Below, one piece after another: positions 1 to 29,526 of a DNA stretch of 37,559 nucleotides. Below the pieces are notes generated by a model that saw only the letters and a program-made list of their open reading frames with translations, had not been told where the DNA came from and made no database searches. The DNA is from a virus, in IMG/VR virus record IMGVR_UViG_3300029790_000030, positions 1 to 37,559 of that record; one strand, 5' to 3'. Both the position numbers and the translations under genes were made by a program. Positions within the stretch are counted from its first letter, which is position 1. Every line of letters starts with the position of its first letter.

Positions 1-63
1 CTTAATGATAAAATCTGCCTTGTAAGCGGACGGTCGTCAGTTCAAATCTGACAAGCGGCTCCA
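1..63 (+). tRNA. tRNA 3' portion (D-loop onward), anticodon TGT (Thr-UGU likely); 5' end lies outside the window
   Basis: Folded by eye. Anticodon stem tctgc (14-18) pairs with gcgga (26-30). The 7-nt loop cttgtaa has T at position 33 and A at 37, with anticodon TGT at 21-23. Variable loop is 5 nt. T-stem gtcag (36-40) pairs with ctgac (48-52) around T-loop ttcaaat. Acceptor 3' strand aagcggc, discriminator t, CCA at 61-63. No complementary 5' acceptor strand is present, consistent with truncation by the window edge. Confidence 0.5.
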
Positions 64-95
64 TCATAACCCGCTCAAGGTCAATCCTTGAGCGG
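1..95 (+). repeat. Left copy of direct repeat (putative attL core), identical to 37465-37559
   Basis: Read directly: bases 1-95 equal 37465-37559 base for base. Both copies touch the window edges, so the true repeat may be longer. Confidence 0.85.
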
Positions 96-104
96 GTTGC
101 TTTT
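69..104 (+). terminator. Rho-independent terminator of the tRNA gene
   Basis: Stem acccgctcaagg (69-80) and ccttgagcgggt (86-97) around a 5-nt loop, followed by tgctttta. Confidence 0.55.
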
Positions 105-262
105 ATGAGGCGTGCGCCATTACTCGTTCCCATGAATTTCCGGCGTGCCGCTTTTGAACATTCATCATCCATTCATATCTCCGGCGGAATGCGGCAGCCG
201 CAGGAAGCAAAGCGGGACGCAACATCTGGCAAGAGGCCATTCCACCCACAGGCATCCCCGTC

Positions 263-301
263 AACTTCCGGCAGCGAAGGGCCATTCCCGGAGCGGGAAG
301 A
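263..301. repeat. About 1.6 imperfect tandem copies of a 20-bp unit (gccattcccggcagcgaagg); a single perfect copy lies at 3276-3295
   Basis: The 11-mer gccattcccgg and the 12-mer cggcagcgaagg each occur in both places by direct reading. Confidence 0.4.
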
Positions 302-397
302 AGGTTCCGTTGGCGATAACGCCGCCTCAGCAAGCCGTTTCCCCCCTTGAATACGCCTCCATTGCCATTTCGACCAAGGGAACCATGATTCAAGCCA

Positions 398-979
398 ATG
401 GATACTACAGAAAAAAAGATGGCCGCGGCTATCCTCCGGTTTGAAGACAGCCGCGTTACCGGGCCGGATTCCCTGCGCGTTTCTCGCCTTCCTGCCGCCG
501 ACAAGGGCGGCAAGTGGGAGATTTGCGGCATTTGCGACGGTATTGAACCGACCGTGTTTAACAGATTGAAGGCCCTGCTGGATGCCGGAAGACGTGAAGA
601 GGCCTGGGAAGGTTGTCTCCAGTATGTCCTGGATAATACCGCCGCCGTGCGTTCCTGGCTGGGTTCCGACGCTTATCCTGGCGTTGAATTCATCCTGCGG
701 GATCATTATTTCAATTCCGGGAGCAGGAATACCGGGAAGATTTTGCAGCGCGCGCTGAATATTCACGGCGCCGGGCTTGTGGTGGACGGGATTGTCGGCC
801 CCAGGACCAGGCAGGAGTTGCAGGACCAGCTGGCCGCCACGGGTGAAGCGGTGTTCCTTATCGCTCTGCAGGAGAAGCGTCAGGCGTTTTACCGCTCGTG
901 CAAGCAGTTTTCCGTGTTCGGGAAGGGCTGGCTGAACCGCTGTGACGATGCGTTCAGCGTGGCGCAGGAGCTTGTTTAG
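398..979 (+). CDS. Putative endolysin: GH108-like lysozyme N-terminus plus PG_binding_3-like peptidoglycan-binding C-terminus
   Basis: 193 aa. N-terminus ILRFEDSR...DKGGKWEICGI resembles a degenerate GH108 ILxxEGG...GG.T.yGI motif. C-terminus LVVDGIVGPRTRQEL...FGKGWLNRCDD matches the D-G-x-x-G-P-x-T peptidoglycan-binding pattern with a GW..R tail. Confidence 0.5.
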   Translation: MDTTEKKMAAAILRFEDSRVTGPDSLRVSRLPAADKGGKWEICGICDGIEPTVFNRLKALLDAGRREEAWEGCLQYVLDNTAAVRSWLGSDAYPGVEFILRDHYFNSGSRNTGKILQRALNIHGAGLVVDGIVGPRTRQELQDQLAATGEAVFLIALQEKRQAFYRSCKQFSVFGKGWLNRCDDAFSVAQELV

Positions 980-1000
980 TTGTTTTCATCATTAGTTGTT

Positions 1001-1291
1001 ATGAGTTCAAATCCATTAAAAGCTGTCGGAGGGGCCCTGGCAAATATCGCCACGTTCGGGGGATATGGAGCCAATAAGGCGGCCAAGAAGCAGGCAAGCG
1101 CCGCCAACGCTATGGCTGATGCCATGGCGAATGCCCCGGAGCAGAAGGTTATTACTACGGAAACCAAGGATGTTTCCCAAGCGGAGGATGCGGTGAATTC
1201 GTCTGCCCGCCGCCGCTTGAAGCTTAGTAATACGACGAACCGGAGCAATCCTCTTTCTTCCCTGGCTGGCCTGAGGAAGACGCTGGGTTGA
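1001..1291 (+). CDS. Hypothetical small Ala/Gly-rich protein (possible virion protein)
   Basis: ORF 980-1291; ATG at 1001 (MSSNPLKAVGG...) is the more plausible start. No transmembrane segment, so not an obvious holin. Confidence 0.35.
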   Translation: MSSNPLKAVGGALANIATFGGYGANKAAKKQASAANAMADAMANAPEQKVITTETKDVSQAEDAVNSSARRRLKLSNTTNRSNPLSSLAGLRKTLG

Positions 1292-1309
1292 TTTTTACAC
1301 AGGAGATTC

Positions 1310-2977
1310 ATGGAAAATGTTAAAGATTTATTGAGGACGGCAGACGCCCTGTTCACGGAGATGAATAAGAATTCCGGGGATTGGGATGAATTGCGCCGGC
1401 GCATCATGCCGAGGATGGAGGGGAAGGCCCGCCAGCAGGAACAGGCTAATGAGATGACGGCTACGTCCAGTTTTTCTCCGGTGGCGCATAAGTCCCTTTT
1501 GAATTTGGCGTCCGCTCATCTTCTTTTTATTACTCCCATGGATCAGAAGTGGTTTTCCCTGCGGCCGCAGGATGAAAGGGATGATTACACCGATGAGGAT
1601 GACTGGTACAGCAAAGCGACGGAGGCCGTCTACCGTGCGCTGGCGGATTCCAATTTCTATGCGGCGGCCCACGAGGTTTACCTGGACCGTTGCCTGACGG
1701 GTACAGGCTGCATGTTTGCAGATGTTTCCCGTGACGGGTCCCTGGTGTTCAAACACGTTCCTACCGGGACTTATGCGATTGCCGAGGGAGCCCACGGGGA
1801 GGTGAATACGCTGGTGCGGACGTTGAAGTTTACTGCCCAGCAGGCCGTGGAGATGTTTAAGCTGGGTAATCTGCCTGTCAAGATTCAGGAGGCGTATAAG
1901 AATGCGGAGAGGCGATATACCGAGATGTTCGAGTTTGTTCATCTTGTACTGCCCAACAGCCGGGCGCAGTTCGGTTCCGACATGGTAAGGCCTGGCCGCC
2001 GCAAGTGGTTGGACGTGTATATTGCCAGGGAGGCGGAGAAGATTGTTTTCCATGGCGGCTTTTACGAGTTTCCTTTTCTGGTGACGCGCTTTTTGAAGGG
2101 CGGCGTTTCTTCTTACGGAGAGGCTCCGGGGAAGGCTGTGCTGCCGGAGATCAAGGCTACCCTGCTGATGGATCGGGTGATGGATGTGGCCGGCAGCCGG
2201 GCGGCCATTCCCAGCGTTATCGTGTCGGCTAAGATGGCAAAGGAGGTTGATTTGCGGGCCGGAGGCAAGACGGTTGTTCCGGATGAGCTTATTGGTTCAC
2301 AGTTGCCGAGGGAATGGGCGAACGTGGGGGATGTGAGGTTTATGCTGGAGCGGCAAGATAAGAAGGAGAAGTTGATCAGGGAGGCGTTTTTCAATGATAT
2401 TCTCCAGGTGGTTTCAAGCGTGGACCGCGAGATGACGGCTACGGAGGTGAATGCCCGCGAGTCGGAACGCATTATTTGCTTTTTTTCTTCTTTTATTCAG
2501 TTTTCGCAGGATTTTCAGACGATGATGAATCGCATTGTCTGCCTGATGTTCCGCAATACGCAGGGGGCCGTGCTTCCGGGCGACGCGCCCGATGAGTTTT
2601 TTGTCCGTTCCGCCGATGGGGGGAAGTTTGAGTTGCGGACTCCCCGCACCCGTTATCTGGGCAAGATTGCCCAGGCATTTGACCGTTTGCAGAGGTACGG
2701 CCTTGAGGGGGTGTTGAATGGGTTGGCGAAGTATATCCAGGTTTCGGGCGATACCCGCATTGCCAAGCGCATGAAGGCATGGGAGGTATTGCGGTTTATG
2801 TGGGACAGTTCCGGCGCCCCGTCCAAGTGCATTGTGTCCGCGTCCGAGAATAGCAAGATGGTTGAGGAGGAGAAGGCGCAGGAGGATCAGATGCGTCAGG
2901 CCGCCCTTGCGGAGCAATTGGCCAGAGCCGGCAGGGATAGCGCCGCGGCGTCCGCACAGTTTAATACGGATTCATGA
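1310..2977 (+). CDS. Portal (head-tail connector) protein, T7 gp8-like
   Basis: 555 aa. By-eye similarity to T7 gp8 in the central region (REMTATEVNARESERII...MMNRIVCLMF against T7 gERVTAEEIRYVASELE...LPLVRVLL) and in the Q/A/M-rich C-terminal tail. Stop overlaps the next ATG (ATGA). Confidence 0.6.
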   Translation: MENVKDLLRTADALFTEMNKNSGDWDELRRRIMPRMEGKARQQEQANEMTATSSFSPVAHKSLLNLASAHLLFITPMDQKWFSLRPQDERDDYTDEDDWYSKATEAVYRALADSNFYAAAHEVYLDRCLTGTGCMFADVSRDGSLVFKHVPTGTYAIAEGAHGEVNTLVRTLKFTAQQAVEMFKLGNLPVKIQEAYKNAERRYTEMFEFVHLVLPNSRAQFGSDMVRPGRRKWLDVYIAREAEKIVFHGGFYEFPFLVTRFLKGGVSSYGEAPGKAVLPEIKATLLMDRVMDVAGSRAAIPSVIVSAKMAKEVDLRAGGKTVVPDELIGSQLPREWANVGDVRFMLERQDKKEKLIREAFFNDILQVVSSVDREMTATEVNARESERIICFFSSFIQFSQDFQTMMNRIVCLMFRNTQGAVLPGDAPDEFFVRSADGGKFELRTPRTRYLGKIAQAFDRLQRYGLEGVLNGLAKYIQVSGDTRIAKRMKAWEVLRFMWDSSGAPSKCIVSASENSKMVEEEKAQEDQMRQAALAEQLARAGRDSAAASAQFNTDS

Positions 2978-3234
2978 TGAATATGTTTGAAGATAAGCCG
3001 ACACCGGAACAGGTTGAGTTTCTCAAGAGGCTCAACCGGAGACGAGCCGCGCTGAAGGAGGCTTTTACTCCGGAGGTGCTGGATATTTTAGAGAAGGAGT
3101 TCCAGACGAATTTGCCCTGCTTTCAAGGGAAGGCTGGTTCCTACGACCCCCTTGACGCGATGCGCCGAGACGCCCAAAGGGAAATGCTCCTGTGGGTGAA
3201 ATACGAGATCGAACAATATAACCCTGATTTATGA
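2974..3234 (+). CDS. Hypothetical protein (86 aa), translationally coupled between portal and scaffold genes
   Basis: ATGA overlaps on both sides; no recognisable motif. Confidence 0.4.
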   Translation: MMNMFEDKPTPEQVEFLKRLNRRRAALKEAFTPEVLDILEKEFQTNLPCFQGKAGSYDPLDAMRRDAQREMLLWVKYEIEQYNPDL

Positions 3235-3974
3235 TATACAATAGATTATTCCACAATAGGTTCCTGAGGGAAGAGGCCATTCCCGGCAGCGAAGGTGAAG
3301 GCCCCGGCGGCGGAGCGCCGCCCCCGGCAAGTCCCGTGGACAGTCCGCCTCCCGCAGCTCCTCCAGTCCCGCCCAATCCCTACGATTTTTCAGGGGGTGC
3401 GGAACAGCCCGATCCGGATCCCGGCAGTACTCCCCCGCTTTCTCCGCAGGAGGAGACCGAGTATGAGATTGATTTTGGGGAAGGGTTTGTGGAGAATGAT
3501 GCCCTGCGAGATATGTTGAAGGGACATGCCAGGGCGGCAGGGCTGCCGGCCGATGCCGCCGGGAAGTTTCTTTCCGAGGTGGCCGCCAGCATCCGCGCGG
3601 ACGAGGAGGCTGCTTTTAAGGAGGCTGACGAGGCGTTGAAGGACGAATGGGGAGCGGAGTATGAGACGAATGTTTCTGCCGCCAAGGCGTTTGCCCGGAA
3701 GCTTTCCGTGGAGTCCGGCGTTTCTATGGAGAAGATGGCTGTGTTTGCGAGTCCGGACGGGTTCCGCGTTCTGCACGCCATTTCCCGGCTGACAGGCGAG
3801 GGAGGCTTGAAGGGCGGCGGCCAGATTCCGGCGAAGACGGATCCTGCCGACGAGGCTCAAGCTATTTTGTCCGACCCCAATCACCGTTATTATAAGGCGA
3901 TCGCCGATCCTTCGCATCCACAGTGGCGGGAGGCTACCGATTATTATAATAAGCTGGTGGGGATTTCCGGTTAG
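3231..3974 (+). CDS. Scaffolding protein, T7 gp9-like
   Basis: Acidic, Pro-rich N-terminus and helical body. C-terminus ...IPAKTDPADEAQAILSDPNHRYYKAIADPSHPQWREATDYYNKLV resembles the T7 gp9 C-terminus ...IPAKPQATKREGFADRSEMIKAMSDPRYRTDANYRRQVEQKV. The true start may be downstream of 3231. Confidence 0.55.
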   Translation: MIYNRLFHNRFLREEAIPGSEGEGPGGGAPPPASPVDSPPPAAPPVPPNPYDFSGGAEQPDPDPGSTPPLSPQEETEYEIDFGEGFVENDALRDMLKGHARAAGLPADAAGKFLSEVAASIRADEEAAFKEADEALKDEWGAEYETNVSAAKAFARKLSVESGVSMEKMAVFASPDGFRVLHAISRLTGEGGLKGGGQIPAKTDPADEAQAILSDPNHRYYKAIADPSHPQWREATDYYNKLVGISG

Positions 3975-4002
3975 TTTTTTTTGCGTTGACTATTGGTTCG
4001 GA

Positions 4003-4039
4003 GGGGTGTCCTGCTGTGCGGGGCACCCTTTCTTTTTTT
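4003..4039 (+). terminator. Hairpin plus T-run after the scaffold gene
   Basis: gggtgtcc...gggcaccc imperfect stem (4003-4028) followed by tttcttttttt (4029-4039). Confidence 0.45.
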
Positions 4040-4040
4040 C

Positions 4041-4068
4041 ATTTGTTCAAGTTACGGTTGTATTCATC
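4041..4068 (+). promoter_or_regulatory. 28-bp conserved element (atttgttcaagttacggttgtattcatc); second copy at 32831-32858 with 26/28 identity
   Basis: Both copies end 17-28 nt upstream of the start codon of a tail-tube gene (gp11-like and gp12-like), suggesting a shared late promoter or leader. Confidence 0.5.
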
Positions 4069-4085
4069 AGGCCTGGGGATGTGGC

Positions 4086-4655
4086 ATGATGCCTCAAATG
4101 GATAAGGTGACCGTTTTTAACCAGGCTCTGGCCCAGTTTGGGGACCGGGAGTATGTGAAGGGTTCCCCAGCCGGTCGCACCGTTGATTTGTGGTGGCCTA
4201 CCGTGTTGCGGGAAGCGCTGTTGTTCGGGGCATGGACCTGGGCAACCAAACGTGTTGAGATGGATCGCTCCGTTATGAAGCATCCGATTCCGGATGATTG
4301 CCTGCGCGTGCTGTATGTGGGGGCGGATTTGTTCCGCATTGAGGGGCGTGATTTGGTGGTTGAGCGTTACGGGAAACGCGCCGCCGGGACCGATAAGCTG
4401 GTGGTGGATTATCTTTCCGACGAGGTGGCCCGTTCCGAAGTGCTGCCGGATCACAGTCCGTTTTTTATCAAGGGCGTTGTGTTTCTTCTGGCTGGCAGGT
4501 GCGCTTTGAAGCTGGCTTCTTCTCCCCAGCTTGCGGCCGCTTTGGAGGCACAGGGGGAGGCGTTTTTAAGCAAGGCCCTTTATTGGGACACCTGCCAGCA
4601 TTCTTCCAACGACCAGGATCCTTTAACAGAGATTTTAAGCAGTTCCATTTTCTGA
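4086..4655 (+). CDS. Tail tubular protein A, T7 gp11-like
   Basis: ORF 3993-4655; ATG at 4086 (MMPQMDK...) fits the downstream placement of the motif. By-eye matches to T7 gp11: NQALAQFG against NDILASIG, GAWTWA against RGWTFN, and SPFFIKGVVFLLAGRCAL against PECFRYWIVTKASRQF. Confidence 0.55.
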   Translation: MMPQMDKVTVFNQALAQFGDREYVKGSPAGRTVDLWWPTVLREALLFGAWTWATKRVEMDRSVMKHPIPDDCLRVLYVGADLFRIEGRDLVVERYGKRAAGTDKLVVDYLSDEVARSEVLPDHSPFFIKGVVFLLAGRCALKLASSPQLAAALEAQGEAFLSKALYWDTCQHSSNDQDPLTEILSSSIF

Positions 4656-4659
4656 TGTT

Positions 4660-5355
4660 ATGAGTTCCGATTTCGGGGGTTCCCAGCAGTATAAGTATCA
4701 GGGGCAGGCGGCTTTGAGCAACGGGCGCGCCACGCAGGCGGCTTATGAGAAGAAGGCCCGCGCCCTGGAGGCGGAGGCGGTTTCCGATTCCCACCTGGCC
4801 GCCCGCAATATGAAGCGGATGCGCCAGAATCAGAATGCCGCCATGGGGTCTGCACGGGCACAGCGCGGCGGATCCGGTTTTACTTCCGAGGGGTCCGGCA
4901 GCCAGGCGGAGGTGGCGGTGGCGGATGTGTGGGAGAGCGCCATTGGGGACGCGGCCCTTTCCAACGCTGTTTCCGATGCCAATAAGCGGTTTGCCGCGGA
5001 GTCCGCCCGATACCAGGGGGATCTGGCCATGATGGCGGCACGCAGCGAGGCGGACCAGTATAAGATGCTTTCACAGAATGCCCTTGGTTCTGCCATGATC
5101 CAGACGGCCCTGACGGCGGCGGGGGGTGTCATGGGGGCGGCAGGAATGTCCGGTGGCGGGTTGCTGGGGGGTGTTACCGAGAGCGGGCAGACGTGGGGTT
5201 CCGCCTCTGGAGGAACCCAGGGGGCTTTTTCCGGGATGATGAATGCTTATTCCCTTTCCGGTTCCCTGGGGGGGATGGTGCCGGGGAGCATGCAGTCTTC
5301 CAACAGGTTGAGGGATTCCCTGCTGGCTAATTTCATGGGTTTTGGAAAGAGATGA
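4660..5355 (+). CDS. Gly/Ala-rich internal virion protein, possibly T7 gp14-like
   Basis: 231 aa. The helical N-terminus (AYEKKARALEAEAV...NMKRMRQNQNAA) resembles the gp14 composition, followed by a long Gly-rich tail. Stop overlaps the next ATG. Confidence 0.35.
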   Translation: MSSDFGGSQQYKYQGQAALSNGRATQAAYEKKARALEAEAVSDSHLAARNMKRMRQNQNAAMGSARAQRGGSGFTSEGSGSQAEVAVADVWESAIGDAALSNAVSDANKRFAAESARYQGDLAMMAARSEADQYKMLSQNALGSAMIQTALTAAGGVMGAAGMSGGGLLGGVTESGQTWGSASGGTQGAFSGMMNAYSLSGSLGGMVPGSMQSSNRLRDSLLANFMGFGKR

Positions 5356-5693
5356 GCGTTTCTCCCATGCAGCAGGCTTTTTTTCTGATGGAAGCCCAGC
5401 GCCCCGGCTGGTTCCGGGAGACCGTTTCCCTGGCGGATGCGGGAGGAGGGATCGTGTGGTGCTGCCCTTCGTTGTTTTTTGCGGGGGTGCCGGATCCGGA
5501 GTCTCCCAGGACGTTGATTGTTCTTTTTGCCCACGGCCGCATGGAGGCTGTCAGGGAGTTGGCTTGTCTGGTGCAGGGGCGTTTTGACCGGGCAAGGTGG
5601 CAACGCTGCATCCGCGGACGCGAGGACTGGAAGGAGATTTCCATCACCAGGTTTTTAAGTTTCAACCGTTTCAAGATGAAAGAAGATGAGTGA
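5352..5693 (+). CDS. Hypothetical protein (113 aa), gp13-equivalent position
   Basis: Coupled on both sides by overlaps; no motif. Confidence 0.3.
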   Translation: MSVSPMQQAFFLMEAQRPGWFRETVSLADAGGGIVWCCPSLFFAGVPDPESPRTLIVLFAHGRMEAVRELACLVQGRFDRARWQRCIRGREDWKEISITRFLSFNRFKMKEDE

Positions 5694-7644
5694 TTTACAG
5701 CAACCCATGTACGGAGGAACCCGGATGAATGCGGCTTCCTCCACCCCTGCCCCGGTCCAGATGCCGGATGTTTCTTCCAAGCCCGTTCAGAGGGCGCTGC
5801 AGAATGCCCAGGAGTTTGTGTCTGATGTTGCCCACCAGTACCAGCGCATGAAGGATTTCGGCGAGCAGACGCGGCTGGAAGGCCGGATGAATGATTTGGC
5901 CAGCGAGTTTGAGCAGGAGATGACCCGGAGATTAGGGTTTGCCCGCGGTCATGAGCTGTCTTTTTACGATCGTGACGGGAGGCTGAAAGAGAGCGCCCTG
6001 AATACGTTTGTACGGAATTACGAAGGGAAGTTCCGCGAGTTGAAGGGGAGTTTTGTTTCCCAGGAGGAGGCCTCCAGATTCGGAGCCAGGCAGCAGGATG
6101 TGATGCGCCGACTCCAGGGGAGGGCTTCCGAGCTGGTTCTTAAGGGACAGATTCAGGAGTCCAGACAGGCTTTTGAGGAAGGGTTGAAGGGGGATTTGCT
6201 GCGGAGGGATTACCAGGGAGCCACCCGTAGGCGCATTCAGGCTTACGAGGCCGGCATTATTTCTGAGAATGGAATGAACAACGGTATTCTGGAAGATACA
6301 CGGAACGGCCTTTTGGACGAATACGAGCAAGATATGCTGATTAACCCCAGTGTTGCTTTTACGAAGCTTGGGGACGGCTATTTTGATGCTCTGGGCGCAG
6401 GAGATGTTTTAAAGCTGAAGGAGAAGACCAGAAGGTTTTTACGTTCCGCGAACCGCTCCGAGAGTGAAGATGGAGCGCCCGGTTACAGAAAGGGTTCTCT
6501 TTGGCCGAAAGCTTCCCTCCGTTACGGAGCCACGGAGCAGGAGTACGACTGGGTGGAGCATTATAACCGGACCGGCAGTTACGGGAAATACGCCCCTTCC
6601 ATTAAGTTTGCCTTCCGGGAGGATTTACGGAATCTGCCCCCCGCCAATTCCGGCGAAGAAAGAACAAGGTACGTCAATGACATGTTGAAGAAGTGGGGGC
6701 AGTATGGACAGGTTCTTGGAGATGAAAGGAAGTTGCGCCTGTTTGTGGAAGACCGGATTGACGCCATGGGGAGCCCCAATACGAACCGGAATAATATAGA
6801 GGCCGTTTTGAAGGCCATGCCGGATCATGTATATATCCCTTATTTTTCTTACCAGGTAGCTAATGCTTACAAGAGTGGTGACCAGGAGCAGATTAAGAAG
6901 GAAGAGAATACGCGGGATGAGGTGGAAGCAGATATTTTGTATAAGACGGAACTTTCCATGACAGAGTGGAGACAGGCTCATCCTAATGCCACACTTGCCC
7001 AAGATCTTGCGCAGATCCATCAATTTACCGCTTTTCATGCCGGGAACAGGTTTGCCTATCGGCCTATTACCGAAGAAGACAAAAAAAGATCTGACGAGAG
7101 CCGCATGAAGAAGGCGCTGGAGTCCATGCCTTTGTATTCTTTTGAGCAACAGGAAGAGTTGAACGTGTCTCCAGAAGAGAGGGAGGCCCAGCAGAAGAAG
7201 GCGGCACAATATATTAAGGGCCAAAGACCTTATTTGCCTTCCCCTCTTGAGAACCACCCTGTTTCTTTTGTCCGGCATGGTACGTCCGGAGCGTATGTTT
7301 CCAAGCAGGCTTATGAGGCTATCAAGGCTAAGTTTGGGAATAGGCCTTTTGCTCGCATTTCTCTGGGACGCAACGGAGCTTTTCTAAAGGTTCCCGTGGT
7401 CGGGGTTTATGAGGGGACCCCGCGGGGCGTTGAGGTTTCAGGACCGCTTTATGAACGCATGGCGTTAAGGTTTCCCGGTGAACAGGCCAGCGGGAATGTC
7501 AGCATTTACGACGGGAAGGATGAACCGGAAGCGCCGGAAGATGGATACGGACCAGGCCTGCTGCCTCCTTTGCCGGGTGGGGACGATACTTACACGCAGG
7601 TGAACGATATTGGCGATTCCGCTCTTCTGCCTCTTAATCAATAG
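5686..7644 (+). CDS. Large helical internal virion/ejection protein, T7 gp15 position
   Basis: 652 aa, highly charged and helical. Sits immediately upstream of the giant gp16-position gene. Confidence 0.4.
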   Translation: MSDLQQPMYGGTRMNAASSTPAPVQMPDVSSKPVQRALQNAQEFVSDVAHQYQRMKDFGEQTRLEGRMNDLASEFEQEMTRRLGFARGHELSFYDRDGRLKESALNTFVRNYEGKFRELKGSFVSQEEASRFGARQQDVMRRLQGRASELVLKGQIQESRQAFEEGLKGDLLRRDYQGATRRRIQAYEAGIISENGMNNGILEDTRNGLLDEYEQDMLINPSVAFTKLGDGYFDALGAGDVLKLKEKTRRFLRSANRSESEDGAPGYRKGSLWPKASLRYGATEQEYDWVEHYNRTGSYGKYAPSIKFAFREDLRNLPPANSGEERTRYVNDMLKKWGQYGQVLGDERKLRLFVEDRIDAMGSPNTNRNNIEAVLKAMPDHVYIPYFSYQVANAYKSGDQEQIKKEENTRDEVEADILYKTELSMTEWRQAHPNATLAQDLAQIHQFTAFHAGNRFAYRPITEEDKKRSDESRMKKALESMPLYSFEQQEELNVSPEEREAQQKKAAQYIKGQRPYLPSPLENHPVSFVRHGTSGAYVSKQAYEAIKAKFGNRPFARISLGRNGAFLKVPVVGVYEGTPRGVEVSGPLYERMALRFPGEQASGNVSIYDGKDEPEAPEDGYGPGLLPPLPGGDDTYTQVNDIGDSALLPLNQ

Positions 7645-7661
7645 TTTTAGCACAATAATAT

Positions 7662-10600
7662 ATGTTTGCACAGGATGTTTTTGAAAGGTTGGGGCTGTCC
7701 CAAGATACGGATTTATTGAACGATCTCCAGAAAGAGGCGTTGTTAGAGCCAACGGAAGCGGCGCAGAGTCCCTATATGGATGACCCGGCATATGCCGGTT
7801 TTGAGACTTTGCGCGGTTTGTTTGGTTCCAACCATGGAGATAATCCCTCCATGTATTGGCTGGCACAGGGAGAAGAGATGCCTGAATTTGCCACCGTGGC
7901 GGACGCACAGGCTGCCGTCTGGAAGGATTTCCAGAAAAAGGCCCGTGCTTATCAGGCAGAGCAGGAGCGACAGCAACAGGCACGGGAGGCATTGGCTGCT
8001 ACGATTGATCCCTTCATTGACCGGTACGTGCGCGGGGACGCTGTGGTTCCCTCCCCTGAACAAGTAATGATGATGCAGGAGGCAGGCATTTCTTGGGAGA
8101 GTGTCAGACGAGCCCGAAGAGGGATGGAACTTGTCCGGGAATATGACGCGCAGGGCACCCTGTACGACGACAGGATCATCAATAATCTGGCGGAACAGGT
8201 GGGAGATGATGAGTTGGCACGGCGCATTGTGCTGAATATGTTTTATAATGACGCCAGGAAGTACGCCAAGGATAAGCACGGTGACGAGTGGACCGGGATT
8301 GACTGGATAGATAAGGCAGCCCAGGGGGTAACGGGGATGGTACGCACCGGGGGCGTGAAGGGATGGCGGACAGGTCAGAAGGCCTGGCGGAATTTACAGG
8401 TAATGGGAGAGGTGGATGCCGTTACGAATGCAGCTAAGCGTCTGCCGGAGTTGATTGCTTCCGGAATGGATGTGGATGAAGCACGCGCTCAGATTGAGAA
8501 GGATGCCACTTTTCTTGAGATACGACGCCGCTGGGCTGCCGATCTGGTTCAAACCATGGAAGCCGGGGAGAAGGAATATTTGGAAGGTGAGGACCGCCAT
8601 TTGGTTGGCCGCATTGGTTCGCAGCTTGGTTCCATTATCGGAGATACGGCTCCCTGGTTCATTCCTGCCATTGGTCCTGCTATCGGAGCTTCCTCCGCCA
8701 TGCAATCCCGCAGGGATGAGGGGGTGAGCATTGGGTTAACTATGGAGGAAACAGAGAAGAGGGCCATGATGTTCGGCCAGGCAGATGCTCTGGAAGAGAT
8801 GATTGCTTTTTCCCCCATCGGGCGGTTGACGCCCGGATATAAGTGGTTGAAGAAGGCGCTTGGCGGTGGGAAGGCCGCCGGGAAGCTGGCCCCGTGGCGG
8901 GCTCGATGGATGGCGAGTCCGAAGGCCCAGTACGCTATTCAAGGGCTTTCCGGCGCTGCGGAAGAGGCCATTCTTGAGCCTACAGCCGGGTATTTGATGC
9001 GTACTGTACAGAGCATGAATCTGACGGACGAACGCGGAAAACAGACTTTCCGTCAGTATTTGGACGATATGGGGCAGATGATGCACGGAGAACAGGGGCT
9101 TGCCCTGCTGGCTTTTACGTTTGGGATGTCCGGCTTTAATTATCCTCAAATCAAAAAGGCGGCCCAGGAGTTTGGTCTTTCTCTGCAACATTACAAGGAA
9201 CTGGGAGGCACGGCCCAGGGGTATCTGGAGGCCAGGGAGGAAAAGACCGCCGAAGGTTTTTTGAATAAGGCCCTTGCCAATTTGCATGATTCCTGGATGG
9301 AGGATCCGCAGGCTTCCATGGAGCGGGCGAGCGCGGCTGCCGGAGAACGCCTTTCCGGGGAGCGCATTGAGTCTTTGCGGGAGCTGGACGCGTGGCGGGC
9401 TGCCGAGGATGCCGGCATGGTGCCGCGGGTGGAGCCGGCGGAACAGGAGGGGATGTTCCGTGTGTATGCTCCGGCGCGCAGCCCGAAAGCGCCGCGGGAG
9501 GATGCTTCCGTCTCCAGAGAGGGGCAGGAAGAGAACGCCCCTTCTTACACGCTGATGGACGGCGAGCAGCTGACGGCTTATTTACAGGCGTTTGTGAGCG
9601 AGCAGGTGGAGAGTGACATCCTCTACACGCAGCATTTGCTGGCCGGGGATGTGACCGTGGGCCAGGCTCTTGCCCAGGGGCGTTTTGACGCGGCGGAGGT
9701 GATTACGCGCACGGTGACGGATGAACAGACAGGGGCCGAACGGGTGGTGATTGCCCCGGAGACGCTGGGGCAGATGAAGGCCCGCGCGGATATGGCGATG
9801 GCCGCTATCCGCGCCCTGGAGGCGGAGGGGGTGAGTTATGAGGATGCCGCCGCCCGCATGGATGCCTCGTTGAGCGAGCATCTTCCGCTGGGAACTCTTG
9901 TGAAGACATGGGAGGAAGCCCAGGAACGCATCAGGACGGAACAGGCCCGGAACCCGGAGTTCAAGGCTCCGGCCATGGATGCCCCGTTTTCCAACGCTTA
10001 TGTGACGAAGGTCCGCCGGGGAGATACGTTCCGCCGGGTGTTGAGGTATGCCCGCGGGAATGCGACGGTGGAGGATTTGATGGAGGAAACGATGGAACAG
10101 GCTGTCATCTCCTGGCAGGCGGAGCAGGGTTTGACCTGGGGCGAGTTCGGCGCGATGCTCCAGGAGGCGCAGAAGTCCATCAATGAGTTGTTCCCGGAGG
10201 CGCGGGGGGAGGAGATGCAGTTTATTCACCTGGACGCCGGGAAGCCGGTGACGGGGCATGATGCGATTGAGGCTTTTTCCAAGATCGGGCGTTCCCGCTG
10301 GCTGGCGGACGCGGTGAATCATCCTTCCCTGCCCTCCTGGCTGCGGAAGCTGTTGAATCATCTGGTGAAGTTCCTGGGGGCTTTCAAGGCGCGCGTGGAG
10401 CTGGGCGAGATGGTGCGCCAGGCGGAGGAACAGGGCGTGTTTACCCTGCCGGTTAGGCAGGCTCTGGCGGTGATGCTGGATGCGGGGAATGCCCTGTACC
10501 GGGACCAGCAGGGGGATTTGATTGTCCTGACTATGGAACGGGCCAAGGCGCAGGCGGACCTGGATGCCGCCCTGGGCCGCGGTGTCGCCACGGAACAGGA

Positions 10601-13600
10601 GACGCTGGAAGAGCAGCTTGCCGAACGCAATGCCGCTGATGAACCGGGGCCCGTGGACCGGGCGGAAGAAGAGGCCGACGACGCGAACGCCCAGCAGGCG
10701 CGGCGCGAACGCACGGAGGCGGAGGTAGAGATGCTGGGGGAACGGGATGATGACGGCGTGTTTAACGGAGGGGTGAGCATTCGTATTGAGGACGGGGTAC
10801 GCCAGGGTTTTATTGACAAGGACCGGCTGACGCTTTGCCCGGATGTTCCCCAGTTCAAGCAGGGAGCCGATGAAAAGACGGGGGTGGTGAACCGGATTGT
10901 GGGGGCCTGGCAGCGCAACGCCGCGCCGATTTCCGTGTGGCGCCGGACTGATGGTTCCCTGCAGGTGATTTCCGGCAGGCACCGCCTGGACGCCTGCACG
11001 GATGCGGATATTAACTGCACCGTGTACGAAGAGGGGGATCGGTTCAATCTGGACTGGGCCCGGAGGCACGACGTGGAGAACAATATCCGGGACGGCCAGG
11101 CGAGCGCGTTTGAGATTGCCCGCTACGTTCGGGATTCCTCCCTGTCCATGGCGGAGGCCGTGGAGCGCGGGATTGCCAGGAAGGGAGCCTCCCTGAAAGG
11201 GGTGGAGCTGGGTCTTTATGCCAGCCAGGAGCTTTTGGATGCGCTGGGCAACGGGCTGGTTTCCCCGGATGACGCCTACCGCGTGGCCCTGGCGTTCCGC
11301 AATGATGCCGAAGTGCAGCGTTCCGGGCTGGCCGTGCTGCTGGACGGCGGGAGCTGGCAGGAGGCTTATAATACCATGGCGGCCAAGGCGAACCTGGAAG
11401 CGATTGCCCGCCAGAATGCGGCCAACGGCATGGATATGGGCATGGACCTGTTCGGGAATACGGATAATGAAGAGCTTTACAAGCGCATCGGGAAGTACGC
11501 GGCGGAGAAGTACCGCGAGCTAGGCAAGGAGCTGACGGCGATTAACGGCGCTTCCCGGAATCCGAAGGTGGCCCGGAAGTACGGCGTGAATGTGAATGAC
11601 GCGGCGGCGGTGCAGCAGGTGGTGAAGCGGTTGCAGGAGGAACGTTCCCGCTGGAAGAATTTTGCCGTGCATCCCGATTTGCTTAAGGAGGCCAATAACG
11701 CCGTGATGGTGGAGATGGGGTTGAAGACGCAGGCACAGGTGGGTCAGGAGAATGGCGTGCTTCCTTTGGAGGCACCAGAACAGGAGGCGGATTCCGACGA
11801 TTCGGGGATGTTGCTGCTTTCCCAAGATGTGAACCGGATGCTGGAGGATTTTATAAAACGGGAGGAGGTTCATTTTTCCCTGGCCGGAGAGAATGAAGCA
11901 TTGCTGGCTCCCAATGGAGAGCCATCCCATCTGACGCCGCAACAGTACCGACAGGTAAGGACGCCAGAGTTTAAGCGGTGGTTTGGGGATTGGGAGAAGG
12001 TAGCCCGGTTCAAGGCAGCCGTGGAGAAGATTATGTCTATGGATCCGGTGGCAGCCATTTCCGGCCAAGAGTTCCAGAAGGACGGCATCCCCCTGACCGA
12101 AAAGGTGACGAAGTTCTGGAAGGAGCGTTTTAACGGAGTAGCCATTTCTCCCGAACTTGGAGAGGTGAGGCTTGATCTTGAAGGCGTGAAGTCTTCCATT
12201 GGACACGGCATCGGTTCATTGAAGTCCGCGGCTTTTGCCTGCGTAGAAGACGTGATCCGGAACGGCGTTGTGTTTGACCGTCAGAAGAATTGGAAAGAAC
12301 GCGGTTACGATACAGCGGTGATTGCCGCTCCCGTCACGATTAAGGGCGTGGAGTATGTTTGCGAGGTTGTTGTTGAGCAACGTACCAACAGACAGGGATT
12401 TTACCTGCATGAGGTGGAGATAAAGAAGAAGCTCGAAGACGTGTTCAAGACCTCCACTGAAGGAGGCACGCCCCAAGCTTCCAGAAGTATATTAGCCCTG
12501 CGAGCCGAAGATGTCAAGAGGGAGGAAGAGGGCATGTCCAAGGTGGTGGACGAGAACGGAGAGCCACTGGTGGTGTATCATGGCTCCCCGCATGTTTTTA
12601 CCGTGTTTGACGTGGAGCGTTCCGGAGAGAATTTTAACCGGAGCCGGGAGGATGGAGGGTTGTTGTTTTTTTCTTCCCTGCCGGAGACGGCGGAAGATGT
12701 GCTTCATGATTTAGAGGGCCGTTTTCCGGGGACCGGGTTGGAGAGTGCGCGGCTGTACGCGTGTTTTATGAGGTTGAGGCATCCGTTTACGCTGGATCTT
12801 GGCGATGCTTCACAGCGCCCGTTTTCCGGTGAGGGTGTGCCGGAGAGCGTGAAGGGTTCCCCGATGGCGTGGTATTTGTTTCCTCACGAGTTGAGGAGAG
12901 GGTTTGATGAGGGGAATGCTCATGGCGCAGGTTATGACGGTATTGTTTTGAAGGGCAGGAATGCTTATGACGGGAGTCCGGAGGTGTGGGGGATGGCTAC
13001 GGATTCCCGGCAGGTGAAGAGCGCTGCCGATAACCGCGGGACGTTTGATTCAGAGAATCCGGATATTACGTTTTCTATTATTGGGGAGAAGGCAGAATCC
13101 TTCATGGAGTACCACAATAACGGACTTTCCTACACGGATCCGGCGGACGGGAAGCGGAAGGCGATTATTGATTCCCGCGGGGTGCGGTTGAGGAAGGAGC
13201 ACGTCAGCGTGAGCGAAGGGGGGCATGTGAATGTTTCCCTGGCCGCGGCCCTGGATTTCCCGGAGTTGTTCCGGGCTTACCCGGAGCTGCGGAAGCTGAG
13301 GGTGGATTTTTACCGGGACAGCAGGAGCGGCACGGGAGGGTTTACCGATCCGCAGGAGCATTATATTGCCGTGAATGTGGCACGGGGCGGGAAGAACGCG
13401 GATGCCGGCATGGTGCTGGATACGATTCTGCACGAGGTACAGCATGTGATTCAGGGGTATGAGGGGTTTGCCCAGGGGGCCGGTCGCATGAGCCGGGATC
13501 AGGCGCTTGCTTATCTGGGCGAGAGCATGATCCAGCTGGCGGGCCGGGACGACGCCTGGGCGAAGGAGGCCCTGCCGCGCCTGGAACGGATGAGGCAGGA

Positions 13601-16600
13601 ACTGGAGGCCGGGACGTTGCAGCCGGCGTTTGTGTATGTTTTTTCCCACGGGGAGCAGGAGGCGCGGCTTGCCGGGAGGTTTGAGAAGAATAGCGAGGGC
13701 GTGGTGATGAGCGGCCTGAACGGGTTCCGCCTGCTGGACGCTCCGCCGTTTTCGATTCCGCTGACGGGGGATATTACGGAGCTTGGCGGCATTACGTTCG
13801 GGGGCGGGAGGTTTGGCCGGATGGCCGACAGGGTTTTGGCTCCGAACGGGGATTGGCTTTACGATGAGATGGTGTTCAGGATGCGGGCCGCCGCGCAGCG
13901 GTCCGTGAGTAAGCTGAATCTGTTTGAGACCGGGGACCGGGAGCTCGGCCTTGAGCTGCTGGCGGAGGCGCAGGAGCTGATTTCCACGGTGGAGCGGTTT
14001 CTTCCCCATACGTACGGGTTCGGGCTGGAACCGTATAAGATTTGGCTGAATGTGTTTTCCCTGCTTTACGGGAATAGCGGGAAGATGGCGCCGGATGAGG
14101 CGCTTTCCAGCGCGTTGAGCGCGATTCCCATGGAGAAGTGGCCGGAGATTATGGCGGGAAGTGTGATGAAGCATTTCTGGGGGTATGTAAAACAGCATGA
14201 GACGCTGGGGCCCATGTGGGAGGGTAAGATGAAGGAGTTTGAGGAAGAGGCGAAATTTGCCGAAGCCGGGGAGAAGGCCGCGGAATTGGATAAGCGCCGG
14301 TGGGAGTTTTTTATAGCGAATGGCGCGGAGTTCCTGGAGAAGTACGGGCAGGTGAAGGTGTACCGCCTGATTAGCAAGTTCATGGCCCGCGTGGTGGAAC
14401 AGATTGACCGTTACCGGAAGGACCGGACGCTGGGGCGCATCCGCCGCGTGGCGGCGTCCGTAGCTCCGCGGACGAATCCGAAGGGGAAGCCGCTGCGCGG
14501 GAAGATGGACGCGGAGAGTTACCGGAGGCTGGAGAGGTGCCTGCGCCTGCTGGAGATGACCGAGAGCCAGTACGATGAGTTTTTCCAGAAGAATTTTCCG
14601 GAGGATGCCGAAGAGGGGAAGAGGTGGGAGGATCTGGCCCCGGATGCGCTGGTGCTGGTGACGCTGCCCGACGCGGAAGGGAGGCTGGAAGAGGTGGCCG
14701 TAACGCAGCGGGAGTTGGAGGTTTACGCCTGTTATGAACGGATGGACGTGAATACTGCGGAGAAGTGCGGCGCGGCCCTTGGAGAATTGATTGCCACGTC
14801 CCGCCATGCCTGGGAGAACGCAGCGGAGAAGAAGAAGATGGAGGTTGCCGCCATGGCCGCCCCACTGCTGCAGGCCACCGGGGATTTGGATGATAGCAGG
14901 ATGGCGACGTTCCGCCGGAAGGCGAGGCTGCGGGCTTTGCCGAAGAAGCCCCTTTCCCTGTTTGATTATCTGATGAATTTTAATCAGTATATGCAGGCGC
15001 TTTCTTCCGTGGAGCCGTTTGCCGGGATTGCCCGCCAGTTTGAGGAACGGGCGGCGCGGTTTAATGTGCAGCGGCAGGCGAGCGAGAAGGAGATGCTGCG
15101 TTTTGTGCACAATACCGTAGCGGAGATTGCGGGGTCCGCGGACCGGTATGATATTGCCGAGTGGATTTATGAGGGGCGCATGAAGGAGGATACGGGGATT
15201 TCCGTTGTGGAGCGGGAACCGGATTGGAACAGGAAGGCCAACGCCCTGTACCGGGAACGCCTTCTTCATTTGCTGCGCCGGAAGGTGAAGTCCCACGGGC
15301 TGGAAGCGGTGCAGCTTTATTTGAGGGAGTTTAAGCTTTCCGAGGATTTGAAGAAGGAGGTGAACGCCCTGTTCGGGCACCGCCGCAAGGAGATTTCCGC
15401 CAAGCAGGCGAAGAAGGCATTGGAGCACATGGAGCGCGTGTTTACGCAGAAGGAGTGGGAGCGGTACGGGGACCAGAAGGTTTTTGTGAGGGAGCGGGCG
15501 GAGATGCTGCGTTCCAGGACGAAGTATGCCAAGGAGGGGTATCAGCCGAAGAGTTTCCGGCTGGATGGCCTGTCCCGGATGGAGGCGGCGTATCTGGTGC
15601 TGTTGTCCGAGCAGGCGGATTATACCGAGGCCCTGGCGGAACGCGGGTTTGACGCGGAGGTGATGGACCGGCTGCGCGGGTTTGCCGGGGATGAGGTGAT
15701 GCGGTTTGCGTATGCTTTACGGGAGAAGCTGAATGAGCGAAGCGGACAGGTGCAGGAGATGACCGAGAGGCGCTACGGCACGCCGTTTCCGCTGACGGAG
15801 AATTATTTCCGGGCGTTTCTCGATGTGACGATGGAGGCGATTGATAAGTCGATTGCCGATGCGGCGTCTTACGGGGAAGCGGCCACGGGCGGGAAGTTCG
15901 GGTTGATTCACGCCCGCCGGAAGCATCAGGCTCACCTGGATTTGGAGATGGATGTTTGCACGGCGTTTATGGCGGCCATGACCGAGCAGGATCTTTACCT
16001 GTACGGCTCCGAGATCAGCCGTGATTTGCGGGCTTTGCTGAATTTCAAGGGCGAGGACGGCGAGGCGGGCCGGAGCCTGGAGGTGCTGCTGGGGCGGGAT
16101 GCCGTGGGCAAGCTGATGGCCTGGGCGGATGCGTTTGACCGCGCCGGGGCGGAGAGTATTCGCGGGCACCTGGATATGAACCGCCTGATGAACCGGCTTT
16201 CCGGCGCGGCGGCGCGAGTGCTGCTGGCCGGGCGCGTGGGGACGCTGACCAAGCAGGCGACGACGGTGATTAACGCGATGTATGCTTCCGACGAGATTGG
16301 CCTTGCCGAGTGGCTGGGGGCCGTCCGCCGGTATCACGCCGGGAAGCTGGTGAAGCCTGTACGCGAGATAGAGGCCCTGCCGGAGCTGGACAGCCGCGAC
16401 AAGACGCGGTTCAGCGCCACGCTGGCTGCCATGGGGGCCGACGAGGCCGGGCGCCGGGTGTCCCGCCTGGAACGCTGGAACCGGGAGGGGATGGATTTGC
16501 TGGAACGGGTGGATATGAAGGGGAATGCGATTTCCGCGGCTATTTTGTACGATGCGGTTTACCGGAAGATGAAGCGTGAGACGCCGGACGCTGCGGAGGC

Positions 16601-17324: not shown

Positions 17325-17466
17325 ATCCGGTGAAGACGGTAGCGGATGTGATGGATTAAAGGCACATTCACTTGTGTCATCACATTAACATATCATAATG
17401 AATGTTTTATAAAAAATAATATGTTTTTTAGTTGCAGAAATAAAAGAATGATGTTCTAATCTTCTT

Positions 17467-17521
17467 GACGTCGGAGGTTTGTCCTTCCCGGACAAGCGTC
17501 TGCCTTATGGTAAGGCCGACG
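17467..17521. terminator. Nested inverted repeats between convergent genes (bidirectional terminator candidate)
   Basis: GACGTCGG (17467-17474) pairs with CCGACGTC (17514-17521), enclosing TTGTCC...GGACAA. A T-run (tatttttat) follows on the + strand. Confidence 0.35.
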
Positions 17522-17528
17522 TCTATTT

Positions 17529-18356
17529 TTATACCCTTTTTCTGGGGGGATAAGAAATCCGCGTAACTCCAGATGATGTCTGTTTACGCACGCCTGAATG
17601 TTGTTTTTTAACAGGTCCCCCAATCCAGCGCAGGGTGTTATGAATTATACCGGAGTTGTCTTTCCACGAATAAAAGCAGTCTTCCAGTTGGGAGTAGAGT
17701 GGCATGATTGGAGAGAATTCCGCAACTCGCAATCCAATGATGGTAGTGACAATGTCTGCTATTTGAATACCTATGTTTTTAGCTTGAGATATGGCAAACA
17801 TAGGTATTTCAAGAATAGAGGATCTCATCTGACTACCAGGAGCGCTTTTGACAAGGAAATTGGTAATGGCAGCTGCATTCCTGCCGTTCGTTCCATCATC
17901 CCGGTTATCAATAATGATGATGGCTTTTCTCCCATAATGTTCCCGTTTCATATAGATATTGATACGTTCACAGAGACTTTTGAATGTAGCATCAAGAACA
18001 CCAGTGTCCTTGCAAGAAAAACTTTGCATGGCTTGGTCAAAACAGACACACCCAAATACCGTAATTTTACTTTTTTTCAAAAATTTGAGAATGGATTCAA
18101 TGAGTTTGATGTTAGTTGAGCCTTCGGGGCGCATCTCGTGTTGTTTGAAGGAGTACCGGGATAAGAGATCTTTTCCCTTCAGTTCAGAGTTGTCCGCGTA
18201 GTCTTTTCCAAGATGTTGAAGTTTTAATTTATAAATGGCATTGGCAATTTTTGTGTAGTCTCCAATAGGGATAGCTACTCCACACATAGCTCCAAATTTA
18301 TGTTTTTCTCCCCCTCTATCCAGTTCTCTAAATGTTTCATCCAAGAAAATCAACAT
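17529..18356 (-). CDS. DUF3800-family protein
   Basis: Begins MLIFLDETF (the DUF3800 N-terminal yIDESG-like hallmark) and carries the later IGIQIADIVTTIIG motif (QiADl-like). AT-rich gene in the cargo island. Confidence 0.55.
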   Translation of the reverse strand: MLIFLDETFRELDRGGEKHKFGAMCGVAIPIGDYTKIANAIYKLKLQHLGKDYADNSELKGKDLLSRYSFKQHEMRPEGSTNIKLIESILKFLKKSKITVFGCVCFDQAMQSFSCKDTGVLDATFKSLCERINIYMKREHYGRKAIIIIDNRDDGTNGRNAAAITNFLVKSAPGSQMRSSILEIPMFAISQAKNIGIQIADIVTTIIGLRVAEFSPIMPLYSQLEDCFYSWKDNSGIIHNTLRWIGGPVKKQHSGVRKQTSSGVTRISYPPRKRV

Positions 18357-18654
18357 ACCAATTATTTATGTGTTTTATATACCTAAAGTCCCGACTTCCT
18401 AAAGGGGCGTCACATTCCTTTGCAAGGCGGCGACAACGGATGAAAAACTAAATGAAAAAGGGTACAACCTCAAGGAAATATTGCACAACTATTTTTGGGA
18501 TATACTATATATTGTGGCATTATCCTTGATTTCAAGGAATATTTTTATTGTCTTGCGTGATTTTTCTGTCTAGTACTTGGCTTCATGTTCGTCCGACTGG
18601 TTGTCAAATACTTGAGGACTTGAGTTTTTGAGGATATAGGAATACCTTGGAGAA

Positions 18655-19401
18655 ATGAAAGGTTTACTGATTGCCATTTGCGTTTTCCTGGGGCTGGCAT
18701 TGTTGCCGATGCCCTACGGCTATTATATGTTCCTGCGGTTGGCTGTGTGTGCTTACGCCATATTTGTGTTTACCCAAGAGCAGAAGAAAGGGGTGTGTTT
18801 CGGGAGCGTATCCGCTGCCGCTATTGCTCTGCTTTACAATCCCGTCTTCCGGGTGCATTTGGAGAAGGAGGTCTGGATGTGGGTGAATATAATAACCATA
18901 TTATTATTCATCATTGTCTCGTTGCCATGGAGAGAGTTTGCAGAGACAAGAAGAGAACGAACAAGGAAACTTAAAGAGGAAGCAGAGAAAAGGAATGAGG
19001 AAAAATTTTATGGAGTGTATTATAAATATTTTAAAAGTAATTTGCTTCTTCCGAATTACTGTGTAAGATGTAAAGAAACTATAGACATATCTACAAGCAA
19101 AGATTTATTATGTCCTTCTTGTTATCAAAAAGTTCAAGAATTTATAGAGCAAGAAGAGAATGAATTTACGAAGACGGGAAATCTTCCCATGAAATTGAAT
19201 TTCAAATGTAAACATTGTGGAGCGAAAGAAAGAACAAGATCGTTTACATTTGGATTTTGCAAACCATGTTATTGGTCTCTTTGCGAACTTGAGTCAATCG
19301 CGAAGAAAGATTTAAAAGGCTATGAGCGATATAAAAAAAACATGCTGGCTATAAAAAAAGCAAGAACGAATAAAGAAAAAATCTATTGGCGTCCAGCATG
19401 A
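18655..19401 (+). CDS. Membrane protein with C-terminal double zinc-ribbon (four CxxC pairs)
   Basis: Three predicted N-terminal TM helices, a charged linker, then CVRC...CPSC and CKHC...CKPC. Confidence 0.45.
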   Translation: MKGLLIAICVFLGLALLPMPYGYYMFLRLAVCAYAIFVFTQEQKKGVCFGSVSAAAIALLYNPVFRVHLEKEVWMWVNIITILLFIIVSLPWREFAETRRERTRKLKEEAEKRNEEKFYGVYYKYFKSNLLLPNYCVRCKETIDISTSKDLLCPSCYQKVQEFIEQEENEFTKTGNLPMKLNFKCKHCGAKERTRSFTFGFCKPCYWSLCELESIAKKDLKGYERYKKNMLAIKKARTNKEKIYWRPA

Positions 19402-19565
19402 AAATAATACTAACAGGAAACTCTACCAATTAGGTTAGCCATTCAGGAAAATTTTATATAACAGATAGTTTTTTTTATTTTTATTATTTTATATTTTATT
19501 ATAACGATTATTACTGCACTATATCTGACAATAACTGTTATAAAATAATTACTACAAAAGACGGT

Positions 19566-20042: not shown

Positions 20043-20066
20043 AGTTTTAAATTGCGCTGATTTTGT

Positions 20067-20736: not shown

Positions 20737-20753
20737 TGAATAGAGTCAGGCTG

Positions 20754-26608: not shown

Positions 26609-26636
26609 GCATGCAGGATAGCAAGGATCTTTAGCT

Positions 26637-29525: not shown

Positions 29526-29526
29526 T

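Follow-up and report, generated by a model that had tools for sequence, protein, structure and literature searches.

In phage T7, the genes of the head and tail are arranged in the order portal (gp8), scaffold (gp9), capsid (gp10), adaptor (gp11) and nozzle (gp12), with the terminator T-phi between the capsid and adaptor genes. The single-subunit RNA polymerases of T7-like phages use promoters of about 23 bp, which are highly conserved. Activator-dependent late promoters are found in temperate phages and include those governed by P2 Ogr and 186 B, by Mu C, and by proteins of the RinA/ArpU type in phages of Gram-positive bacteria. It is also a recognized pitfall of assembly that repeats shared by prophage and host give rise to false circular or incomplete viral genomes.

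Here, we analyzed a whole stretch of 37,559 nt, hereafter the window. Partial megablast matches to the Akkermansia phages Chambord and Chantilly identify it as Akkermansia phage DNA. Its structural module resembles that of T7, with a PF12236 portal, a gp11-like adaptor, a gp12-like nozzle, and large internal/ejection proteins encoded downstream. The strong terminator before the adaptor gene likewise recalls T-phi, but it follows the scaffold gene rather than the capsid gene. Unlike T7, the prophage is temperate and has lambdoid-style repressor and replication genes, its capsid and fibre genes lie beside attP and the integrase gene, and its nozzle gene precedes terL. Moreover, no phage RNA polymerase was found: PHROGs and Pfam searches of the window and the left-arm ORFs gave no match to a single-subunit RNA polymerase, the 3220-aa protein being only partly assignable. 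The T7 order from portal through scaffold, capsid and adaptor to nozzle was not encountered in the full-length genomes, and the capsid gene follows the scaffold gene in the relatives L129 and L100.

Taken as a whole, we consider it probable that the window is the circular form of a tRNA-Thr prophage from which a 5.4-kb arm is missing, and that a motif repeated in it controls late genes, most likely as a factor-dependent promoter. Such a prophage amounts to a set of T7-like structural genes reorganized into separately insulated cassettes.

The scaffold–adaptor junction and the location of the capsid gene

The gap at 3975-4085 is flanked on the left by a scaffold-like gene, whose stop codon ends at 3974, and on the right by the tube A/adaptor gene, whose ATG begins at 4086. 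The elements in and around it, and those of the right-hand late unit, are as follows:

3231-3974, + strand: scaffold-like gene, 247 aa (phrog_3742, E 2e-14; weak 'protease' PHROGs), ending an endolysin–portal–scaffold unit
4000-4039, + strand: intrinsic terminator closing the scaffold unit (stem 4000-4032, 15 pairs of which 9 are G-C, 3-nt loop, T-run to about 4039)
4041-4068, + strand: motif copy A, 28 bp, core TTCAAGTTACGGTTGTAT at 4046-4063, 22 nt 5' of the tube A ATG
4086-4655, + strand: tube A/adaptor (gp11-like) gene (phrog_394, E 2e-12), opening a unit that extends through the 3220-aa protein
32831-32858, + strand: motif copy B, 28 bp, core GTCAAGTTACGGTTGTAT at 32836-32853, 33 nt 5' of the nozzle ATG
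32887-35712, + strand: nozzle/tube B (gp12-like) gene (phrog_376, E 2e-92; PDB 8ck1 'Tail Nozzle', E 2e-49), translationally coupled to terL
35712-37343, + strand: terminase large subunit gene, terL (phrog_2), the final phage gene before attR

The scaffold-like protein has a Pro-rich, disordered N-terminus and a helical C-terminus, and its homolog in L129 is encoded directly 5' of the capsid gene. The portal is of the gp8 type by its matches to PF12236 (E 1.6e-75) and phrog_332. The hairpin at 4000-4032 is G+C-rich and is followed by a T-run, as in intrinsic terminators, and the terminator is kept in all loci of the scaffold/tube A site. A sequence-only reading of this DNA had described the gap as a terminator plus a 28-bp element between the scaffold and tube A genes; our scan located both, and the PHROGs, Pfam and PDB matches uphold its identification of the portal, tube A, tube B and terL genes, as well as the assignment of terS. 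It had also regarded the gap as the expected site of a capsid gene, which proved mistaken. The scaffold–terminator–motif–tube A junction is identical in full-length genomes (L267, position 12737), where the capsid gene lies elsewhere. The stretch 3975-4085 is therefore not a deletion scar in the window, and the interval from scaffold to tube A is not the home of the capsid gene in this lineage.

The position of the capsid gene is given by L267. This host contig of 196 kb contains the exact portal gene of the window and, starting from the endolysin ATG, is 99.976% identical to window 398-12977. Its gene order is topoisomerase IV, tRNA-Thr, att core, integrase, capsid, terminator, a 688-aa protein, ORFs of 134, 105 and 75 aa, and endolysin. 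The integrase belongs to PF00589 and the capsid to PF19821 (63.8 bits; cut-off 25); the capsid of the lineage is assigned to PF19821 and phrog_3437. The 688-aa protein is Ala-rich, with coiled-coil segments and a beta-rich C-terminus, and by these features is a probable fibre. The integrase–capsid–fibre arm, which spans 5.4 kb from tRNA-Thr to the endolysin gene, is present in all 24 of the 24 longest contigs with the exact portal. The true right end is seen in L259, a 212-kb host contig that consists of window 25709-37559 followed by window 1-789 and then by ParB and other host genes, that is, terL, attR, host flank and a relic. Host genes come after terL in host contigs of 200-550 kb.

The prophage would accordingly read, on the left, tRNA-Thr/attL, integrase, motif, capsid, terminator, motif, 688-aa protein, three small ORFs and endolysin. 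Its middle part would continue from the endolysin through portal, scaffold, terminator and motif to the unit running from tube A through the 3220-aa, presumably injected, protein, and its right part would hold the lysogeny and replication genes, terS, motif, nozzle, terL and attR. The window-family loci agree in showing nozzle, terL, att, integrase, capsid, a protein of about 680 aa, small ORFs, endolysin and portal. The distant Akkermansia relative L129, whose terL product is 44% identical, carries scaffold (phrog_3742), major head (phrog_3437, E 2e-50), adaptor and nozzle genes. A tblastn search with its capsid retrieved a 28%-identical homolog (E 3e-32) in the window-family loci and none in the window. 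In L100, the capsid gene comes after scaffold, a terminator and a different repeated element, and the nozzle gene already precedes terL, an arrangement which indicates that the capsid cassette moved within the lineage.

That the window contains no ORF for a capsid or a T7 gp17-like fibre, as stated in the sequence-only reading, was confirmed by family searches and tblastn. Among its roughly 40 ORFs there was no PHROGs or Pfam match to capsid, fibre or integrase families, the 3220-aa protein and the nozzle, compared with PDB sequences, gave no capsid match, and tblastn of the family's own integrase, capsid and fibre-like proteins against the window gave no match for any arm protein. It is scarcely conceivable that a capsid protein is nevertheless encoded in the window and has diverged past recognition. 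Several window ORFs do lack a family match, but in genomes that share 99.98% identity with the window, the gene for the lineage's PF19821/phrog_3437 capsid is found beyond its limits, and tblastn matches this capsid nowhere inside it. Moreover, the late ORFs are ejection-protein-like (Gly/Ala-rich, 231 aa; charged and helical, 652 aa), and a 366-aa ORF is RecT-like in sequence and position, its counterparts matching the RecT Pfam family.

Thus, of the earlier interpretation, the view of the motif survives, whereas the explanations for the missing capsid give way to its location in the 5.4-kb arm. Capsid and fibre had been supposed to be too diverged to recognize or to be supplied in trans; they are absent from the window and encoded by the prophage itself in that arm. 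The suggestion of a defective or helper-dependent element would apply only if the 37.5-kb circle were real, which is a minority reading. Whether the circle is an artefact or real, genes for capsid, fibre and integrase belong to the phage itself. Nor does the window resemble a PICI or P4-like satellite: it lacks an integrase, yet carries portal, scaffold, adaptor, nozzle, ejection and terminase genes.

The motif heading the late units

The exact 22-mer TCAAGTTACGGTTGTATTCATC occurs at 4047 and 32837 only, both on the + strand, when the whole window is searched with up to 3 mismatches. Two copies were thus observed against none expected, 100 shuffles giving 0 matches. The recurrence of the 28-bp element at 32831-32858 with 26/28 identity, noted previously, was reproduced. 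The motif has the form TTG-TTCAAGT-NNN-GGTTGTAT. A third, weak match (AACAATTGCGGGTTGTAT, 19582-19599, − strand, 3 mismatches) lies within the 3' end of a minus-strand ORF and is probably due to chance.

In full genomes, TTCAAGT-N3-GGTTGTAT heads four late units, which begin with the capsid gene, the 688-aa fibre-like gene, tube A and the nozzle gene, respectively. The capsid site carries a tandem half copy (1.5 copies in all). Every copy is on the coding strand, 22-33 nt 5' of the first ATG of its unit. From site to site, the leader that separates motif from ATG differs in RBS spacing and shows no sequence relationship. At two of the four sites, those of tube A and the 688-aa gene, a terminator stands immediately 5' of the motif; at the latter it is the following element:

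5929-5956 of L267, plus a T-run: terminator after the capsid gene, 5' of the motif at the 688-aa site

Before the nozzle gene, CAAGTTACGGTTGTAT is kept in 45 of 45 loci, all retrieved via terL or other genes and never via the motif. Across the 16 flank haplotypes at this site, the 16-nt core is the sole long invariant block, while the flanks show substitutions, indels or full replacement by different cargo genes. An invariant core amid such flanks argues for selection on the sequence itself. In the relative L094, a leader of the 688-aa type is joined to the nozzle gene exactly at the motif, indicating recombination between motif copies. We also considered the two window copies as att-like borders of a mobile segment of 28.8 or 8.7 kb and rejected this, given that full genomes hold four copies, all before late genes. 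Our literature search found no account of this phage or motif.

The motif is a conserved late-gene control element standing before each structural-gene block, and judged from its sequence and placement it is most likely a factor-dependent late promoter. The previous proposal of a late promoter or leader shared by two tail-tube genes is thereby supported and widened to four late units. Akkermansia host promoters have a canonical -35/TATAAT structure (PMC4782308). No sigma-70 -35/-10 pair at a spacing of 16-18 nt was found at either window motif by scanning or at the four sites by manual inspection, and sigma-70, extended -10, ECF, sigma-54 and Bacteroidetes-type geometries, compared by eye and by scan, were all rejected as not fitting the motif. 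The cargo gene beside motif B has a TTGACA-18-TATATT promoter, unlike the motif. The poor sigma-70 fit implies a phage factor. Since the motif lies very near the RBS, it must contain the -10 equivalent, so that the start is expected just downstream; and since it directly follows terminators at two sites, a new transcript start is needed there. We infer that transcription initiates at the motif. Each late unit would be insulated by a terminator and then restarted at the motif, with transcripts beginning just 3' of it and including the RBS. Host sigma-70 RNA polymerase alone would be unable to use the motif, and a phage factor would switch the promoter on.

The motif shares features with both classes of late promoter mentioned above. 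Like the T7-like promoters, which are of similar length, it is an unbroken and nearly invariant block that recurs in front of late genes. As with activator-dependent promoters, a short element with a poor sigma-70 fit precedes each late operon and a DNA-binding gene lies 5' of the terminase gene; but the motif sequence is unrelated, and the block is close to the start codon, where it must hold the -10 equivalent rather than serve as an upstream activator site. The DNA-binding gene is:

30899-31207, + strand: winged-helix protein, 102 aa, just 5' of terS (PF13412 HTH_24, 22.5 bits, cut-off 21.9; MarR-like matches)

This is the sole small DNA-binding protein encoded in the classic position immediately 5' of terS, and from its gene position and the marginal HTH match it is a candidate late activator. 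A tblastn search at E 1e-5 found no match to it in motif-less relatives.

The motif might instead work in RNA, as a shared 5' leader controlling translation or stability of the late mRNAs, and the placement of all copies on the coding strand 22-33 nt 5' of start codons would suit such a role. We regard this as quite unlikely, because folding of the four leaders revealed no common structure and no significant folding energy (z -1.0 to +0.9), Rfam contains no family matching them, RBS spacing and leader sequence vary from site to site, and the two copies directly behind terminators need a new transcript start. A motif that plays no part in expression, and chiefly marks recombination or cassette boundaries left by late-gene shuffling, is very unlikely. 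The leader swap in L094 falls precisely at the motif, the capsid gene is preceded by the tandem 1.5-copy arrangement, and the gene order departs from that of relatives retaining scaffold–capsid–tube A–nozzle, all of which speak for such a relic; yet a strictly invariant core amid replaced flanks in 16 haplotypes, and a uniform orientation and position relative to start codons, are at odds with it. With a factor-dependent promoter as the preferred reading, the four late control sites, unlike the host promoter consensus, provide a clean and testable set in a common gut prophage.

L100 contains an element of different sequence, GCACrTTGAAAA(A)TGnGnGTGTAy, in two copies (5390-5445 and 20470-20533), situated 5' of its capsid gene, after the terminator, and of another gene. 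The layout is like that of the motif.

Closure of the circle across a host relic

The ends of the window and the sequence next to them comprise the following:

1-95, + strand: left overlap copy; 1-16 phage-specific, 17-63 the 3' part of tRNA-Thr(TGT), then the tRNA terminator hairpin
96-397, + strand: host chromosomal flank, not phage DNA; normally follows tRNA-Thr and is absent from full-length prophage arms
398-979, + strand: hybrid endolysin gene, with host-relic alleles at 401/404/414 and phage alleles at 700/703/708/761/763
37465-37559, + strand: right overlap copy, an exact repeat of 1-95, holding the att core

The exact 95-nt repeat at the window ends gives a circle of 37.46 kb. We considered this repeat as attL and attR of a complete prophage and rejected the idea: 1-16 is phage-specific at both ends, and because host junctions match the window from position 17 only, the repeat is a circular overlap across att. 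In L267, tRNA-Thr is located at 3551-3625, and 3579-3666 is identical (100%) to window 17-104, the att core. The att core is thus the 3' end of a tRNA gene, and the PF00589 integrase gene adjoins it in L267, outside the window, as in tRNA-integrating temperate phages. Window 1-397 corresponds to attR plus host flank. The 5' half of tRNA-Thr was detected at 111 host loci, and the flank 96-397 follows tRNA-Thr in about 70 of them, Mb-size Akkermansia contigs included. Among near-identical phages (L257-L266, L075, L084, L099), two integration modules were observed, one for tRNA-Thr and the other for a site beside an ABC-transporter operon; divergence sets in exactly at window positions 16-18, inside the 95-nt att repeat, and the integrases are about 71-78% identical.

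The host DNA beside attR contains an endolysin paralog that is full-length (193 aa) but diverged at its C-terminus. A phage-gene fragment in reversed orientation comes next, and this locus is a prophage relic. Over the first ~390 nt, the relic and phage endolysin genes are nearly identical (98%) and in direct orientation. Similarity to the window ends at 789, inside the paralog, in about 45 flank-bearing host loci with enough downstream sequence. The relic alleles at 401/404/414 and the phage alleles from 700 onward mark the window's endolysin gene as a hybrid, with the crossover in the 285-nt identical stretch 415-699. The circle was consequently closed via these 285 bp, in silico or by recombination, with a loss of 5.4 kb; the arm is absent because closure took place across attR, the host flank and the relic endolysin. 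The window would follow a path from terL through attR, the host flank and the 5' part of the relic endolysin into the 3' part of the phage endolysin, skipping the arm. The outcome is comparable to lambda dgal and dbio in that host DNA beside attR is included and phage genes of the other end are lost, but the join is illegitimate in lambda and homologous here, via the endolysin paralog. The reversed fragment beside the relic derives from a phage membrane-protein gene; together with the intact paralog it occurs in many Akkermansia host contigs, such as L203, L209, L234 and L259, at about +400 to +1700 from tRNA-Thr, in at least two haplotypes.

We think that the circle is probably an artefact of assembly or of boundary calling. 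A 285-nt exact repeat is beyond the resolution of short-read graphs, and a de Bruijn-graph cycle through it would be a likelier route than a RecA-type loop-out. Dozens of contigs begin or end inside the endolysin gene, as for an unresolved repeat, and the MEGAHIT contig L144 (k=111) terminates exactly at 414+k. The MEGAHIT contig L143 was examined as a second end of this SNP-plus-k kind and rejected, as it represents another relic haplotype instead. L071 was left out because it is probably a chimeric scaffold, to judge from its divergent tail. For the exact portal there are records in 447 blocks, and 63 of these include contigs of 50 kb or longer; the exact hybrid endolysin protein is on record solely in contigs of 13 kb or less. 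The same endolysin repeat forms the borders of several database contigs of this prophage (about 36-38 kb), and the ends of one of 38.2 kb appear to overlap within the endolysin gene. The endolysin–portal–scaffold unit of the circle is without the motif and lies behind the tRNA terminator, a further sign that the circle is not the functional genome.

Less likely, the 37.46-kb circle is a real molecule, looped out from endolysin to attR by homologous recombination between the prophage and relic endolysin genes. It would be a replicon with repressor and replication genes, without integrase, capsid and fibre, and would spread only with a full-length helper. The direct repeats of ~390 nt at 98% identity are correctly oriented for such an event, and junction contigs running from host flank through endolysin to portal (L070, L136, L235) come from several samples and assemblers, SPAdes included. 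Independent hybrids of relic (H2) and phage type are present in L235 (72.8 kb) and L249. Their crossover falls near 766-789, in a region of merely short identity between the two copies, which suits real recombination, in some strains, better than a k-mer artefact. The 95-nt end overlap is located at att and not in the endolysin gene, and a simple graph-cycle artefact does not predict this. Against a real circle stand the restriction of its hybrid endolysin to short contigs, the full arm in each of the 24 longest portal-bearing contigs, the frequent contig breaks inside the endolysin gene, and the motif-less first unit behind the tRNA terminator. A broader proposal is possible but doubtful: a novel late promoter served by an undescribed Verrucomicrobia phage factor, whose copies also act as crossover points that moved terminator-insulated capsid, fibre and nozzle cassettes out of the T7-like order, the capsid-less 37.5-kb circle possibly being a real, recurrent, helper-dependent recombinant. 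In either case, a complete-looking circular contig without capsid, fibre and integrase is a false or aberrant circle formed via a host relic paralog, and to read such contigs as a 'capsid-less phage' or a 'satellite' would be wrong.

The endolysin gene (398-991) shows about 93% DNA identity with its counterpart in Akkermansia phage Chantilly, a phage otherwise unrelated in gene content and order. This likeness points to a shared lysis module and a further source of assembly repeats.

Cargo and accessory genes

The stretch between terS and motif B (31793-32830) is a slot for variable cargo: among relatives it is either empty or filled by one of at least five different inserts, and the motif is fixed throughout. 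In the window it is occupied by:

31793-32767, − strand: cargo gene of low GC (36%), 324 aa, with its own sigma-70-like promoter at 32804-32775, directly 5' of motif B

The 3220-aa 'polyvalent' protein (7662-17324) is encoded at the position of T7 gp16. It contains an ART-PolyVal domain (ADP-ribosyltransferase, E 1e-13) and LPD3, and about 2,600 of its residues are without assignment. Between the late genes and the S24-peptidase repressor lies a low-GC island (17300-22100, 31-46%) encoding DUF3800, DUF6804 plus a zinc-ribbon, and DUF2971, mostly on the minus strand; these are likely cargo or defence genes. In L100, which is a more distant relative, the genes between terL and portal (11538-15261) specify a 751-aa protein and a reverse transcriptase (phrog_1423, E 2e-47), and this locus may be a diversity-generating retroelement.
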